A stretch of 27,803 bases of DNA from Candidatus Heimdallarchaeota archaeon (GTDB lineage: Archaea; Asgardarchaeota; Heimdallarchaeia; Heimdallarchaeales; Heimdallarchaeaceae), in contig DXJF01000126.1 in the NCBI GenBank assembly GCA_019057375.1, forward strand, positions 1-27,803, written 5' to 3'. The position numbers were made by a program, and so were the translations under genes. Each line of letters opens with the position of its first letter. Position 1 is the stretch's first letter. Shown here one piece after another: positions 7,285 through 17,088 of the stretch. The notes below the pieces were generated by a model that saw only the letters and a list, made by a program, of their open reading frames with translations, ran no database searches and was not told the origin of the DNA.

Positions 7285-7778
7285 ATGCAAATAAACGAAG
7301 ACTATCTAGAAGAAGTTGGAGATTTAGTAGATGTTGATCCAAATGATATAAGACAGAAAAAAGAAAGAAACTTCATGGATATCTGATTCATTATTTTATT
7401 CAAGTTTTTGTGCTTCTCCTCTCCTCACTAATGGGTTATCTTTTTGTGTTATGGGAACATTCAGATAGAAGTGGATATCCATACGGTTTTTTACCAAGAC
7501 ATATATATCTAGGCCCAATCGGTCTTTTTACTTTACATGGAGTAAATGAAGTTCATAGCTATTTTCATAAGAAAAGATATAATCTCCGTTTTGTTGAGGT
7601 TTATCCAGTAATAATCGTCAATCTTATAATCTCATTCGTTAGCTTCTTTTTGATTTTTATCGCATTTTATCAAGAACCAGTATATCCTCTAGGTGTTCTA
7701 CCTGCTTATGGTGTGTTTGAAAGAAGAAAATCGAAGAAGTTTAGAATAATTAGGAGAAAATTTTATTATTATAACTAA
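7285..7778 (+). pseudogene. Membrane protein paralog 2, frameshifted in an A6 run
   Basis: AGGAG plus ATG 7285 gives MQINEDYLEEVGDLVDVDPND. Adding one A at 7357-7362 joins it colinearly to the 7410-7778 frame. Confidence 0.8.
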
Positions 7779-7844
7779 ACTGAAGGTGTTTACACTTATG
7801 AATGAAGAAAAACTAAATGAAGTAGGAGCATTAACAGAAGTAGA
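7775..7844 (+). repeat. 70-bp near-identical copy of 6558-6627 (RBS plus first ~16 codons)
   Basis: 68/70 identical by manual alignment; both mismatches lie upstream of the ATG. Confidence 0.9.
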
Positions 7845-8301
7845 AGCTAAGGATATAGATAAGAACAAAATCAGAAAGAAAATCACCTTAGTTTATTATT
7901 ATTTTATACAACTAGGATTCTTAGTCATCTCAGGATTTACTGGATTTTTATTGGGTTTATACAAGGACACAAATTCTACTTATCCCTTTAGTGGTTTTGA
8001 TCGAAGTTACATTTTTGGACCAATTTTTGTAGCTATTGCACACGGAGGAAATTTAGGATTATCTTACGGTATGAGAAAGAAAAACAAACTAATTTTTAAA
8101 AAAGGGGTAAATATTAAGCTATCTCCTTTCTATGTCTATCCTGCTGTTTTTCTAAATTTTGTTTTATCGGTATTCTTCTTCTTATCTATCTATCATATAA
8201 TGGTTTCTGGGAATGCTTTCACAGCTACAACTAGATATGGTGTATATACTAGAAAGAAAGCAACATGTAATAATCTTGCCAGTAGGAGTAATTATGTATA
8301 G
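7798..8301 (+). CDS. Membrane protein paralog 3
   Basis: Same RBS and start as paralog 1; overlaps the radical SAM start. Confidence 0.85.
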   Translation: MNEEKLNEVGALTEVEAKDIDKNKIRKKITLVYYYFIQLGFLVISGFTGFLLGLYKDTNSTYPFSGFDRSYIFGPIFVAIAHGGNLGLSYGMRKKNKLIFKKGVNIKLSPFYVYPAVFLNFVLSVFFFLSIYHIMVSGNAFTATTRYGVYTRKKATCNNLASRSNYV

Positions 8302-9358
8302 ACTAGATTGCGCGATTTGGGAACTTACTTTAGCTTGCAATATGCGTTGTAAACATTGCGGATCAAGTGCAGGAGAAGCTAGATCAGATGAACTTTCTTT
8401 AGAAGATTGTTATAAATTATGCAGGGGACTTGCAGATGAAGGGTGCAATTTAGTTACTTTGATGGGAGGTGAACCATTTGTTAGACCAGACTGGAATCAA
8501 ATTTCTTGGTGTATTAAAGACCTTGGAATGGACCTAGGATATGTAACAAATGGACTATTAGTTCCTAAAATTATTGAAGATCTAACGTTACTTGAACCAC
8601 TGGTTGTCGGTATCTCTTTGGATGGTGTAAAAGAAACTCATGATAATATCAGAAGAGAAGGGTCTTATGATTCCGTAATTAAGGTACTGGATCTTCTGGA
8701 AGAAGCAAGTATTCAGACCACTGTAATTACAACCCTAAGTAAAACTAATTTCAAAGAATTACACAGTATAAAGGAGATTATCCAGGATAGGAAAGTCAAT
8801 TGGCAGTTGCAAATAGGTTTACCTTTTGGTAATTTTGAACCTGAACTCACTCTGAGTTTAGAAGAGTTTTATGCATCTGCAATGTTTATCACTGCTGAGG
8901 GATTTAAAAACAAATTCGATCATATGCCTGTAGTTGGAGCGCATTGTTATGGATATTATTCACATCTTCTTCCTAACAACAAGAATTGGAAGGGATGTAC
9001 AGCTGGTATAAATACAATAGGCGTAACATCTGATGGTTCGATTGTAGGATGTTTATCAATGGGTAACGATAAATTTATTGAGGGAAATATCAGAGAACGT
9101 AATTTCTCAGATATCTGGAATGATCCTAATTCCTTTGCATACAATCGGCAATTTACTAGAGCAAACTTAGGTGAGAATTGTGTCAATTGCTTATTTGGTG
9201 AAACCTGTAAAGGGGGTTGTAACTCCACTTCTTATCACCTTAATCGAACTTTTCATAACACAGCTTACTGTTTCAAGCAAATTGAAGAAAACCTCTTTGA
9301 GGCAAAGCAATACCGTAAAGAGATCAAGTGGTTAAAACAAAAGGGAGTTAAAACCTGA
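8294..9358 (+). CDS. Radical SAM protein with SPASM domain
   Basis: CNMRCKHC, MGGEP, ISLDG, SPASM cysteines CTAG...VGC...CVNC...CKGGC...C. AGGAG RBS favours ATG 8294 over 8213. Confidence 0.95.
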   Translation: MYRLDCAIWELTLACNMRCKHCGSSAGEARSDELSLEDCYKLCRGLADEGCNLVTLMGGEPFVRPDWNQISWCIKDLGMDLGYVTNGLLVPKIIEDLTLLEPLVVGISLDGVKETHDNIRREGSYDSVIKVLDLLEEASIQTTVITTLSKTNFKELHSIKEIIQDRKVNWQLQIGLPFGNFEPELTLSLEEFYASAMFITAEGFKNKFDHMPVVGAHCYGYYSHLLPNNKNWKGCTAGINTIGVTSDGSIVGCLSMGNDKFIEGNIRERNFSDIWNDPNSFAYNRQFTRANLGENCVNCLFGETCKGGCNSTSYHLNRTFHNTAYCFKQIEENLFEAKQYRKEIKWLKQKGVKT

Positions 9359-10641
9359 TGATAAAACTCAATCTAGGGTGTGGTGTTTTTTATAAACCTG
9401 GATATATCAATATTGATTTATCAGAAAACGATGTTGCTGACGAGATACAGAATGTCGCTAATCTTAAGTTTAAATCTAATAGTGTGGATGTCATAGAAGC
9501 ATCCCATATTCTCGAACACTTCGATATTATTCATCTTCCATACGTTCTTGCAGAGTGGTTTAGAGTACTAAAAACGGATGGGGAATTATGCATTGAAACT
9601 CCAAATTTAGTGAAATCTATTATCTCTTTGAAGCCTAGAAGCGATGAGTCAAAGAAACTCACATACCAATTTCTATTCGGCATTGATTTTGAAGGAAATG
9701 TCCACAAAATAGGTTTCACTACTCGGTTTTTGAAGAAATATCTTATTTCTACTGGTTTTACTAAGATATCAAAACAAAAACAAAAAAGCTTCAAATCAGA
9801 GAAGAGTATAAGGTACTGTTGCAAGAAACCTGCAGAGATTCCACTGACTAACACAAAATTCCTTATAAATCATTTCAGAACACTAATTAAAACTCAATTT
9901 GGCTTATTAGATACTCTCTTTTTAGATCACTGTGAGTCAAATTGTATAAGTTTTTTCAGCAAATTAAAACTAAACAATGACATGAATAATTTGAGTGATG
10001 AATTATGCTTAGAACTAATAGCTTCACTAACACTTTTTAGTCCCAAGGTTGCTAAAATCTTCGTTGAGCTCTTCTCAGACAATTTACCAACTCACATAAA
10101 TTTTGATGTATTAGATTATTTGGATTCTATTGATTTCTCCTCAAAAATGTATGAGAATTGGAAGAGCTGGAGAAAAAATAAAGATAAACCAAAATATGAT
10201 GTATTCTATTTCTATAATCATTGGATTTCAAAAATAAAGAAAAGTTTGTTATCAAAAACTAAGATTGATGTCATGTATAATTTTATTGAATCAGTGGAAA
10301 GGAGCGATTACGATTACTTTTGTTTTGAGCTAGTAGATATCTTATCTCTCAGAAAATCTAATCAAGGCTTAAGATACTTCTCAAACAAAAATTTTGAAAA
10401 AGCAAAAGAATTATTCTTAGAAACCTTGAAACTTCAACCCTATAATCCTGTTTCAAACTGGAATCTAGCTAGATTATCAAAAAATTCTGAGAACAAAGAA
10501 AAGCTACTCATATATTATAAACAAGCAAAGATGAATGCCTTATCACGTGAGTATAAGAAGAAAATAAAAAAGGAGATTCATCTCTTGAAGAAGGGTAATG
10601 AAAAACTAATACCACTAGAACCCATACAAATTAGATTCTAG
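9358..10641 (+). CDS. Class I SAM methyltransferase with C-terminal TPR-like helices
   Basis: KLNLGCG, SHILEH, EWFRVLK.DG; TPR-like GLRYFSNKNFEKAKELFLETLKLQP; TGATG coupling to the radical SAM gene. Confidence 0.85.
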   Translation: MIKLNLGCGVFYKPGYINIDLSENDVADEIQNVANLKFKSNSVDVIEASHILEHFDIIHLPYVLAEWFRVLKTDGELCIETPNLVKSIISLKPRSDESKKLTYQFLFGIDFEGNVHKIGFTTRFLKKYLISTGFTKISKQKQKSFKSEKSIRYCCKKPAEIPLTNTKFLINHFRTLIKTQFGLLDTLFLDHCESNCISFFSKLKLNNDMNNLSDELCLELIASLTLFSPKVAKIFVELFSDNLPTHINFDVLDYLDSIDFSSKMYENWKSWRKNKDKPKYDVFYFYNHWISKIKKSLLSKTKIDVMYNFIESVERSDYDYFCFELVDILSLRKSNQGLRYFSNKNFEKAKELFLETLKLQPYNPVSNWNLARLSKNSENKEKLLIYYKQAKMNALSREYKKKIKKEIHLLKKGNEKLIPLEPIQIRF

Positions 10642-10800: not shown

Positions 10801-12096
10801 ATGTTTAGAGTGGAGAAAGTTTCCTTCCGAGAATCAATTAAAAACATGAATTATAATGTCAAATTGGTTTTTCTTTTCTCGTTTTTCACATCCTTTGGTA
10901 GAGGAATTTGGATGGGAAATGTTCTCACAGCTTATATCTATTTCTTCACAAATAAATCCAATATTGTTGTTGGTCAGACCTCTTTAGCTATGGGGTTAAC
11001 CATGACTGTTTTTGTATTTCCTTCTGGCTATTTTGCAGATAAAATTCGCAGAGATATTCTATTAAAAATCGCTTCAGTTGTTGGAGTGGTTGGTCTTGTA
11101 GTTATTCAATTTGGCAATACCATTACAACCATCTTTGTAGCTCTTGCCTTATGGGGGTTGTTTCAAGCTCTAACTAGACCTTCTTTAGAATCTATTTTTG
11201 CAGATTCTGTTGAATCAGGAAAGAGAACGAAAGTCTATTCCTTGGTACATTTGGTCAGGCAATTAGCTATGGCGATTGGACCTTTTGCAAATATCTTTTT
11301 CTTCCTCTGGTTTGGTAATGAATGGACACTTAAGAATATGAAAAACGTAATGCTTATTGGAATTTTAATCACTTTTGTATCTGTTATTATTATGCTGTTT
11401 TTCAATGACAATAAAAGTCTAGGGAGTTCAAGTGAATCCATTGAAGAAAATATGGTAGAGACAGATGAATTAAAACAGAATGGGCTTTCATCAAGGTTAC
11501 CTGTTAGTAGAGCAACTAAACTTGTTCCATATCTTTTGGTTGGTTCAAATATTATAATTGGAGTAGGGGCTGGTATGACGATAAAATATTTTCCACAGTT
11601 CTTTATAGAACAATATCATCTAGAACCTATTTGGGTTCAGATAATTATGGGGCTGACAGCTATTTTCACAGGATTATTAGCACTTCTTGCACAAAAGTTT
11701 TCTGTAAAACGAGGAAGACCACTAATAATTTTCTCTGTTCAACTCATAGCTACTCTCTGTTTATTTGGAATAGCGTTCTATCCAAACATTTGGCTTTTAG
11801 TGCCTTTATTTATAGCCAGAGGAGCGTTGATGAATGCAGGCCAACCCTTGTCTAGATCGATTCTCATGGATGTAGTTCCGAAGAATAAAAGAGGAAAATG
11901 GAATTCATTAGAAACTTTTGCATGGGGATTTTTCTGGAATTTCTCAGCTTTGATAGGTGGATATATAGTTGGAGATATTGATCCAAGATTTTGGTTAGTT
12001 TTCGTGGTTACAGCTTCTGTTTACCTTGTCGGAATCATTCCTCTCCTGTTCCTAATTCCTCTTGTAGGCAAAGAAAAATATGCTGAAAAAATTTGA
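10801..12096 (+). CDS. MFS transporter
   Basis: About 12 TM; motif A GYFADKIRRD; SILMDVVPKNKRG. Confidence 0.92.
   Translation: MFRVEKVSFRESIKNMNYNVKLVFLFSFFTSFGRGIWMGNVLTAYIYFFTNKSNIVVGQTSLAMGLTMTVFVFPSGYFADKIRRDILLKIASVVGVVGLVVIQFGNTITTIFVALALWGLFQALTRPSLESIFADSVESGKRTKVYSLVHLVRQLAMAIGPFANIFFFLWFGNEWTLKNMKNVMLIGILITFVSVIIMLFFNDNKSLGSSSESIEENMVETDELKQNGLSSRLPVSRATKLVPYLLVGSNIIIGVGAGMTIKYFPQFFIEQYHLEPIWVQIIMGLTAIFTGLLALLAQKFSVKRGRPLIIFSVQLIATLCLFGIAFYPNIWLLVPLFIARGALMNAGQPLSRSILMDVVPKNKRGKWNSLETFAWGFFWNFSALIGGYIVGDIDPRFWLVFVVTASVYLVGIIPLLFLIPLVGKEKYAEKI
11930..12091 (+). repeat. Left direct repeat (3' end of the MFS gene)
   Basis: 150/162 identical to 16910-17071 by manual count. Confidence 0.92.
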
Positions 12097-12398: not shown

Positions 12399-12844
12399 TT
12401 AAAAACTAAGAGGAGATTTCAGTTTATAATTATACCATTCTGTAAGAAGAAAATACAATTTTATGTTAGACAATTCAGATTTATTCGAATAGTTTTCGTT
12501 GTGAATACTTCTGATCTCTTTTTTTCATTATTCTTTCTATTTCTCTCTTTCTCTTCTTTTGGTTTAACTATTGGAAAATAAATGATAATTGAGCTTATAA
12601 TTCCTAAGATTGAAGCTAGTAAGAAAATTCCAATAATCACAAAATATAGAACTTTAAGATAGTATTTGCTTTCTTCTAACGAACTGGCTTTTTCGAATGT
12701 TCCCATAAGAAGTGATCCTGCTAGACCAACACTTACTAAAAGACTCTGGATTGTTATTGATATTGTTGCTTTAGTATCAGCTTGTTTAATAGTGTTCATT
12801 GAGTTTTCATATGCTAACACGACATGATCAAATTTTCTCGTCAT
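12399..12844 (-). pseudogene. PycTM/DUF5706-like 2-TM effector, frameshifted in an A7 run
   Basis: MNTIKQADTKA followed by TM segments. One extra A near 12520 continues KEIRSIHNENYSNKSELSNIKLYFL to TAA at 12399, abutting the next ATG. Confidence 0.55.
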
Positions 12845-12961
12845 TGCATTCCCTCTCAAAATAAAACCTTTGTAACATAAATAAAGATTTTGTGAAAAAT
12901 AGATAATTTAACATAAATCAATATTGAACTAGAATTTAAGAAGGATATTTTTTTTATATTT

Positions 12962-13073: not shown

Positions 13074-14236
13074 TCATGTAGGAGAAATTTTTACGAATCC
13101 TGAGCCAACTAACTCCATTATCAATTCCATTGCTTTTGCTTCGACCTGATCCTTCTCAAAAGAAATGTGACCAATATCACTGAAATCGCTACTGAGAGTT
13201 ACACTTTTTTCTTTTAGTATCACAATTTTATCGTACAAAATGGATGCTGCTCCTAGCTCGTATACTGCATTGTCACGCTATCAAGCACTGATACGATCAT
13301 CTGTTGATTAGTAGAAATGGATGCTGCTCCTAGCTCGTATACTGCATTGTCACTTGGTCGCCAAATTTCAGTGCCATTTTCATCTATATGCTTTTCGTCA
13401 GCTGTAAAGATTATAATTGCAGATGTACATTCGCGCATTAAATCTGCAACCTTCTTTGAAATTGGACGTCCCTTATGTGGTTCACCTATGGCCATTTTAT
13501 AAGGAATCTTGAACTTGTCAAGAATATCTATCAACTGTTCCACAGGCTTACGATTCTTACCATGAACTACAAAAATCTGATTTTGTTTCCTCGTATCTAG
13601 AGGGATAGTTTGTTGAGTTGTAGTGTCAGCTTCTGCTTCTTCAACATCCGAGGATGAAGTAGTAATGTCTTCAGACATTGATTCACTGGAAACAGATGGA
13701 CCTTTAAAAGTAACATGATATGCTCCTTGGCTGTGAAAGAGTATGCCTGAATAGAGACCATTTGCAATTAATTGGTCAGCACATTCAGAAACTAACTGAG
13801 ATGGTATTTTGAACTGACTTTCTAGTATATTAAGGAAGTATTTTTCCTGCTTAAAAGGAAGTTGTCCGTCTTTGTAATGTTCGTAGATTTTCTTATAAAC
13901 AGGAATGTTCAGAACAGCGGTTTGCCTAGCAGTGATTTCTTCTTCTGGACTTGTAGGTTTAATTATGGATTTTCCAAGCGAAGTTAAGCTGATTGTAGAT
14001 GCTTGATAAGTTCCTTCAGTAAGTCCATATCTGTATGCAGAACTTGTGAAGTCCCGAAAGTTTTGACTAGTTTTTGTGATTTTGACATAGTCCGCGATGA
14101 AAACAGGTTCCCAAGACTTACCATTGTAACCCATTTGAATAGCATTTGCAATTACTAGTGCCTCTTCTAAGGTATTAGGAGGAATGGGGCGTGTAGTTCT
14201 CGTCTTCCTTTTTGCCTTTTCTTTTTTTTCTGACAT
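13074..14236 (-). pseudogene. wHTH-like N-domain plus Cap12-like TIR protein, interrupted by a 77-bp insertion
   Basis: IFVVHG, IFTADE, RPSDNAVYELG. The true C-terminus (ILYDKIVILKEKSVTLSSDFSDIGHISF...SPT*) resumes in another frame after the duplicated segment. Confidence 0.85.
13238..13353. repeat. Perfect 39-bp direct repeat flanking a 38-bp unique spacer
   Basis: aaatggatgctgctcctagctcgtatactgcattgtcac at 13238-13276 and 13315-13353. Confidence 0.97.
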
Positions 14237-16851: not shown

Positions 16852-17088
16852 TTCTTGAATTTTTCTGCTCTTATTGGAGGTTATCTTGTTGGTGATGTAG
16901 CTCCTAGAGTTTTCTGGAATTTCTCAGCTTTGATAGGTGGATATATAGTGGGTGATATTGATCCAAGATTTTGGTTAGTTTTCTTAGTAACAGCTTGTGT
17001 TTACCTTGTTGGAATCATTCCCCTCCTGTTCCTAATTCCACTTGTTAGCAAAGAAAAATATACTGAAAAAAAGCACTTAGAGGGTTAG
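16852..17088 (+). pseudogene. Displaced MFS 3' end, preceded by a more divergent 60-nt copy of the same helix
   Basis: FLNFSALIGGYLVGDVAPRV then FWNFSALIGGYIVGDIDPRF...; 16910-17071 is the right direct repeat. Confidence 0.88.

Follow-up and report, generated by a model that had tools for sequence, protein, structure and literature searches.

Off-target integration by Cas1-Cas2 has been established in vitro and in E. coli over-expressing these proteins, and clean natural examples are scarce in print. The neo-CRISPR units that arise by such integration are credited to Nivala, Shipman and Church (2018, as cited in bioRxiv 10.1101/148544); the published case reportedly used an over-expressed E. 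coli type I-E Cas1-Cas2, with a 28-bp duplication and a 33-bp spacer, and natural cases were circumstantial only. In vitro, the Cas1-Cas2 of P. furiosus carries out full-site off-target integration at non-CRISPR sites ~43% identical to the repeat (PMC6698737), its attacks falling one repeat length apart with a preference for G1, T2 and A6 (Grainy et al., 2019, PMC6698737). For one type III-A Cas1-Cas2, integration becomes promiscuous when its architectural cofactor is missing (PMC13769266). Here we describe a lesion in an Asgard (Heimdall-group) archaeon that is most likely a new natural case of this known type of event, off-target spacer integration. It appears to have inactivated a defence gene at its predicted active site, and the same genome holds a sister event with a self-derived protospacer.

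The window, which is the whole stretch of DNA analysed (27,803 nt), corresponds to the complete contig C77 of a 159-contig, 3.47-Mb MAG with 33% GC and 89% completeness. On the minus strand, positions 13074-14236 hold a broken gene with an N-terminal domain of unknown function and a C-terminal CAP12/Pycsar-type TIR-like domain, the latter interrupted by 77 bp. Two direct repeats lie at 13315-13353 (copy 1) and 13238-13276 (copy 2), 77 bp apart from start to start and 100% identical over an apparent 39 bp. Between them is a unique insert, or 'spacer', of an apparent 38 bp (13277-13314). These coordinates bear out the perfect duplication around a spacer reported by the first-pass annotation. A perfect 39-bp match should have a negligible probability of arising by chance, and the 39-mer and the 38-mer are each confined to this single locus in the 3.47-Mb genome. 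Read on the minus strand, the repeat translates as (S)DNAVYELGAASI. The truncated ORF (13253-14236, minus strand, 327 aa) comprises 307 native residues ending ...DNAVYELGAASI and 20 out-of-frame residues; it leaves the frame after the first repeat copy and reaches a stop codon within the second. The stranded C-terminal fragment of the TIR-like domain (13074-13238, minus strand) is intact, with 54 codons to the TGA at 13074, and its frame is that of the homologs' C-terminus (LYDKIVILKE...ISPT). By manual count, 48 of its 54 residues (89%) are identical to those of the closest homolog, P0002, in keeping with the earlier description of a 77-bp frameshift followed by an undamaged end of the gene.

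Removal of the 77 bp restores the reading frame. The homologs, ~1,500 proteins of 350-380 aa, read ...RPSDNAVYELGAASILYDKIVILKE... uninterrupted and are collinear with the broken gene if the 77 bp are ignored. The empty site is preserved in P0002, which is 77% identical overall and has one contiguous 39-mer at this position, 37/39 identical to the repeat. The lesion is accordingly a 77-bp insertion, made up of a duplicated target and a unique insert. Tandem duplication followed by divergence was rejected as an origin, since the insert bears no relation to the 38 nt after repeat 2.

The TIR-like domain matches the PF10137 profile with 41.2 bits (cut-off 24.7), but the break confines the match to profile positions 1-96 of 119; the full domain is present in intact homologs. 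In an alignment that is weak overall (E = 0.29), the DNAVYELG motif of the homologs pairs with DNVVFEFG of SfSTING/Cap12 (PDB 7UN8), in which E84 is the catalytic residue (PMC9402430). The duplicated segment encodes the active-site motif, with the Glu of YELG aligned with E84. This agrees with the first-pass annotation, which cited the Glu of the (Y/F)ELG motif as catalytic in TIR NADases; the intact protein would be a putative NADase. The insertion breaks the gene at this motif and removes the last 54 residues of the TIR-like fold. The gene appears to be a recent pseudogene, and the practical upshot would be to annotate this TIR-like effector as such.

The protein shares with CAP12/Pycsar TIR effectors a TIR-like domain with the motif DN(A/V)V(Y/F)E(L/F)G. 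Unlike in those effectors, the TIR-like domain here is C-terminal, behind an uncharacterised domain of ~200 aa for which no family match was found, and there is no STING, SAVED or cNMP sensor. The island that carries the gene is also without a cyclase: among its genes, no nucleotide cyclase partner (CD-NTase or PycC) was found. The best defence-database match of the gene's family is the candidate system PDC-S35, and the gene is sporadic within the genus. The island is of a defence type, ~5 kb long and bracketed by 165-nt direct repeats at 11927-12091 and 16907-17071 (92% identical, 4980 bp apart), of which the left copy is the 3' end of an MFS transporter gene. It contains a 78-aa ORF, a PycTM-like gene, the TIR-like gene, a 218-aa membrane ORF and an S8 peptidase, and no integrase was seen in it. 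The PycTM-like membrane gene (12461-12859, minus strand) lies directly downstream of the TIR-like gene, is co-oriented with it and matches PADLOC PycTM at E = 6.7e-8. Its protein, of 127-132 aa, has two TM segments, and the match covers only the first half of the profile.

The dimensions of the lesion have a close counterpart in the CRISPR arrays of related genomes. A unit of 39 + 38 bp is equally one of 37 + 40 bp, and its 77 bp fall on the modal period of type III-A arrays in this lineage. The closed genome G006 carries 99 repeats, each 37 nt long; the spacers measure 37-45 nt (most often 40-41), and the commonest period is 77-78 bp. This array is immediately downstream of csm1-csm5, cas6, cas1, cas2 and cas4, and is therefore assigned to a type III-A system. 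Arrays similar to those of G006 are present in G001 (loci L045 and L046), the period in the class being 75-79 bp, and a same-genus genome, G020, has a 15-repeat array (C211) in which the repeats are 37 nt long, the spacers 38-42 nt, and the terminal repeat is degenerate. In the G006 locus (L043, G006:C1:1037400-1057300), the stretch 7382-9958, between cas6 and cas1, encodes a 494-aa protein with two weak hits to wHTH regulators and a 311-aa protein without a family match. Both may be accessory genes of the adaptation module, as yet uncharacterised.

The MAG's own arrays (on C103 and at the end of C17) have 29-30-nt repeats, 35-36-nt spacers and a period of 64-65 bp. Its type I locus (cas6 ... 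cas3-cas4-cas1-cas2) is on C8, the end of which overlaps the 30-nt-repeat array at the 3' end of C17, and a second piece of the 30-nt repeat family is at C103:873-1230. A host CRISPR repeat was rejected as the template of the 39-mer: host repeats are 29-30 nt long and unrelated to it. The match to host repeats that an earlier reading had suggested looking for is thus absent, and the matching system lies outside the MAG. In a Cas1 tree, two clades with 100/100 support separate the MAG's Cas1, which groups with 30-nt arrays, from that of G020, which groups with 37-nt arrays; the two Cas1 clades of the family match array geometry exactly. Within the MAG (89% complete), the only cas1 is of the type I clade, and searches found no Cas10/Csm1, second Cas1 or second Cas6. 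Nor was any 37-nt array or trace of 37-nt repeats found in it, contig ends included.

A genome-wide scan for short-range direct repeats returned exactly one other isolated unit, at G000:C115:54768-54882 of the same MAG (locus L011/L063), and no older degenerate scars or scars of 30/36 geometry. The C115 unit has an apparent 38-bp repeat and a 40-bp insert; it is intergenic, with no cas genes nearby. In the same-genus genome G018 its 38-mer occurs once, with 3 mismatches and continuous flanks. The insert is near-identical to the MAG's own ABC-transporter ATPase gene (C100:3-875, PF00005) and to same-genus G014. Exactly 41 nt (54805-54845) align, with a single mismatch (40/41), to C100:419-459 in the Walker B/D-loop region. 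From this protospacer match it follows that C115 is composed of a 37-nt repeat, a 41-nt spacer and a second 37-nt repeat; the 38th 'repeat' base is the spacer's first base, which coincides with the native flank.

Against 20,000 random genomic 39-mers, the C115 unit is similar to the G020 repeat with an empirical p of 1.5e-4 and to the G006 and G001 repeats with p = 0.02, and it is not similar to the MAG's own 30-nt repeat (p = 0.21). A plain target duplication of non-CRISPR DNA was dropped as an explanation of C115, the unit being homologous to type III-A repeats. C115 is CRISPR in nature. It is a solitary repeat of the type III-A class, or orphan mini-array, with one self-derived spacer, and the genome around it has no cognate effector genes. 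Because of the homology to type III-A repeats, either a solitary repeat would have gained a spacer here or G018 would have lost one.

Both units have a geometry identical to that of the lineage's type III-A arrays, and the length of the TIR insert is within the 37-45-nt spacer range of these arrays. From C115, where the protospacer fixes the boundaries, and from the lineage's 37-nt repeats, we infer that the TIR unit is a 37-bp duplication with a 40-nt spacer. The duplication would occupy 13317-13353 (copy 1, starting with GTGACAA in the sense of the gene) and 13240-13276 (copy 2), and the spacer 13277-13316, with its first two bases (TT) equal to the native flank. By our own estimate, a coincidence of at least 2 nt at the flank has a chance of ~0.2. 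The uninterrupted target site reads GTGACAAT.... At its 5' end, GTGACAA agrees with GTTACAA of the G020 repeat at 6/7 positions (p ~0.012, for a comparison chosen post hoc), and over the whole length a manual position-by-position count gives ~40% identity. Compared over its full length with 37-nt repeats, the target shows no significant similarity (p = 0.2-0.64), and no leader-like motif was found ahead of it. Its GTGACA start and its ~40% identity to a same-genus 37-nt repeat may be set beside the G1/T2/A6 preference and the ~43% identity of the P. furiosus integration sites; those were plasmid targets attacked in vitro with a 30-bp ruler, and here the spacing is 37 bp and the setting a natural population.

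C115 has a repeat homologous to those of the type III-A arrays. The TIR unit, unlike the arrays, lacks a leader, the 3' handle ATTGAAAT and any significant overall repeat similarity, and it departs further from a canonical CRISPR array in having two copies only and lying in coding sequence. It is not an array member, and crRNA output from it is unlikely.

We consider the 77 bp to be probably the scar of a natural off-target full-site spacer integration, made by a type III-A-associated Cas1-Cas2 with a 37-bp ruler. The first-pass annotation had raised an ectopic event resembling spacer acquisition, a suggestion now well supported by the geometry of the lineage's 37-nt-repeat arrays and by C115 with its 41-nt protospacer. 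In such an event, Cas1-Cas2 of the 37-nt-repeat, type III-A-associated class, probably with Cas4, would capture a prespacer of ~40 nt. The integrase would then attack the TIR-like gene at the site starting GTGACAA, with a 37-bp offset between the strands, and gap repair would duplicate the 37 bp on either side of the insert. With two insert bases equal to the native flank, the repeat would come to appear 39 bp long. The outcome would be a one-spacer 'neo-CRISPR' unit in coding sequence, with a frameshift just past the catalytic Glu motif.

The units described by Nivala and colleagues are alike in having a spacer-length insert within a repeat-length duplication of non-CRISPR DNA, and in forming a one-spacer chromosomal pseudo-array. 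The present unit differs from them in being natural, in coming from an Asgard archaeon and in its 37/40 geometry, as well as in lying within a coding sequence, which is inactivated, and in a genome whose assembly does not contain the cognate cas genes. We infer that an enzyme of the type III-A-associated class also produced the TIR unit and once resided in the lineage on an unbinned, lost or mobile element. The MAG has no type III-A genes, so the enzyme would have been lost, have remained unbinned (11% of markers are missing) or have been supplied by a mobile element.

If off-target integration is the right reading, the two events point to a real mutational cost of CRISPR adaptation and to the capture of self DNA, and they indicate that such scars can persist once the responsible cas genes are gone, or move independently of them. 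When MAGs are annotated, an orphan 'mini-array' or an odd frameshift may turn out to be an integrase scar. The events also have a bearing on the birth of new CRISPR arrays. A further proposal is improbable: that integrases of the 37-nt class, maybe on transient mobile elements, are occasional natural mutagens of Asgard chromosomes and that the TIR hit became fixed as a precisely revertible off-switch of a toxic effector. If true, a CRISPR integrase would have made a genetic switch or an anti-defence lesion, and the event would be more than a neutral accident.

The alternative that survives best, and which we still regard as unlikely, is that some other process cut the strands ~37-39 bp apart and filled in around a captured fragment, the CRISPR geometry being coincidental. 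This process could be the work of an unrecognised integrase or transposase-like enzyme, of a mobile-element enzyme unrelated to Cas1, or of error-prone break repair. Transposon insertion resembles the present case in that a staggered strand attack and fill-in duplicate the target around the insert. It differs in that known transposases leave target duplications of ~2-15 bp around elements with defined ends; the present duplication measures 37 bp, and the TIR and C115 inserts are unrelated to each other. To our knowledge, no transposase or repair pathway yields 37-bp duplications with 40-nt inserts. Another process would fit a MAG without cognate cas genes and a TIR target that is not significantly repeat-like. 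It would also fit the searches for the origin of the insert, which found no source in any of the collections covered. The 38-mer has no match longer than 15-16 nt in its own genome, which rules out a genomic source and with it the local template switch that the first-pass annotation had entertained for the spacer. It has no match at three or fewer mismatches in 83 genomes of the class. Exact scans with the full 38-mer in IMG/VR, and with a 24-mer core and a 20-mer of the insert in JGI metagenomes and in GTDB genomes, returned nothing; these collections may have masked the records closest to the window's genome. In the databases scanned, a protospacer was traced for the C115 twin unit and none was found for the TIR insert. 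Against a coincidence of geometry stand C115, which is placed on sequence homologous to type III-A repeats and measures exactly 37 + 41, and the fact that two independent events share dimensions equal to the modal period of the lineage's arrays.

Integration by the resident type I module (cas3-cas4-cas1-cas2), acting with an aberrantly long ruler at a non-cognate site, is decidedly improbable. This is the only adaptation module present and it adjoins an active-looking array, but the period in the MAG's own arrays is 64-65 bp, and likewise in relatives. Published off-target events preserve the cognate repeat spacing (PMC6698737). The genome holds no isolated 30/36 scar, and the C115 repeat is unlike the 30-nt repeat at the p value given above.

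It is very improbable that the insert is functional, either as a selected reversible off-switch or as a segment that is spliced from the RNA (BHB intron) or bypassed in translation to give a full-length protein. The gene is otherwise undamaged, with its C-terminal 54 codons 89% identical to the closest homolog; the repeats are 100% identical, and the insertion sits precisely on the active-site motif. A recent pseudogene would equally retain an intact gene body, however, and the C115 twin, being intergenic, shows that genes are not the specific target of the mechanism. Recombination between the repeats could physically revert the lesion with precision, as with any direct repeat, so that the reversible switch proposed earlier is reduced to a passive possibility. 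The insert is present in each of the four assemblies, and a 15-billion-protein collection yielded no intact allele of >90% identity. Because no such allele was found there, the insertion looks fixed wherever the population has been assembled. RNA-level excision, also proposed earlier, fares no better. No strict bulge-helix-bulge (two 3-nt bulges, 4-bp helix) was found at any register that would excise 77 nt, and inspection showed no GT-AG intron register in the repeat. The imperfect hairpin noted in the insert is weak, the region folding no better than shuffled controls (z = +1.65). A GT-AG or BHB intron and a structured RNA were rejected on these grounds.

Both 39 and 77 are k-mer sizes of common assemblers and the genome is a 159-contig MAG, yet the probability that the repeat-insert-repeat is an assembly or library artefact absent from the organism's DNA is close to nil, because an identical block is present in four assemblies that were made by different pipelines and differ by 5 SNPs or a divergent 490-nt block, because by our reasoning the path at k = 77 contains no repeated k-mer, so reads must span it, and because the C115 twin has an independent biological signature in its 41-nt protospacer. 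The exact truncated protein occurs on four contigs, from the source sets JGI 3300032170, ENA ERZ6006181, GCA_002505645.1 and the window's MAG. Comparison of the NCBI MAG contig, the JGI contig and the ENA SPAdes NODE contig with the window showed the identical repeat-insert-repeat block in all three. The NCBI MAG and JGI contigs have 5 SNPs relative to the window, and the ENA contig has two of those 5 SNPs and a divergent 490-nt stretch. The allele is thus found across different pipelines and in at least two haplotypes. The first-pass annotation had named an assembly artefact as what would overturn its reading; four assemblies with SNP differences carry the same block.

In the ENA ERZ6006181 contig (L007, positions 1-490), the S8 peptidase region is strongly divergent from the window and the remainder is near-identical. 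This ~490-nt block could be a recombinant block or a strain chimera beside the island. Many contig ends of the MAG (e.g. C101_5/C54_3, C114_3/C66_5 and C23_3/C7_3) have 18-mers in common over long stretches, and repeated sequences therefore break the assembly; some of the MAG's contigs are probably joinable.
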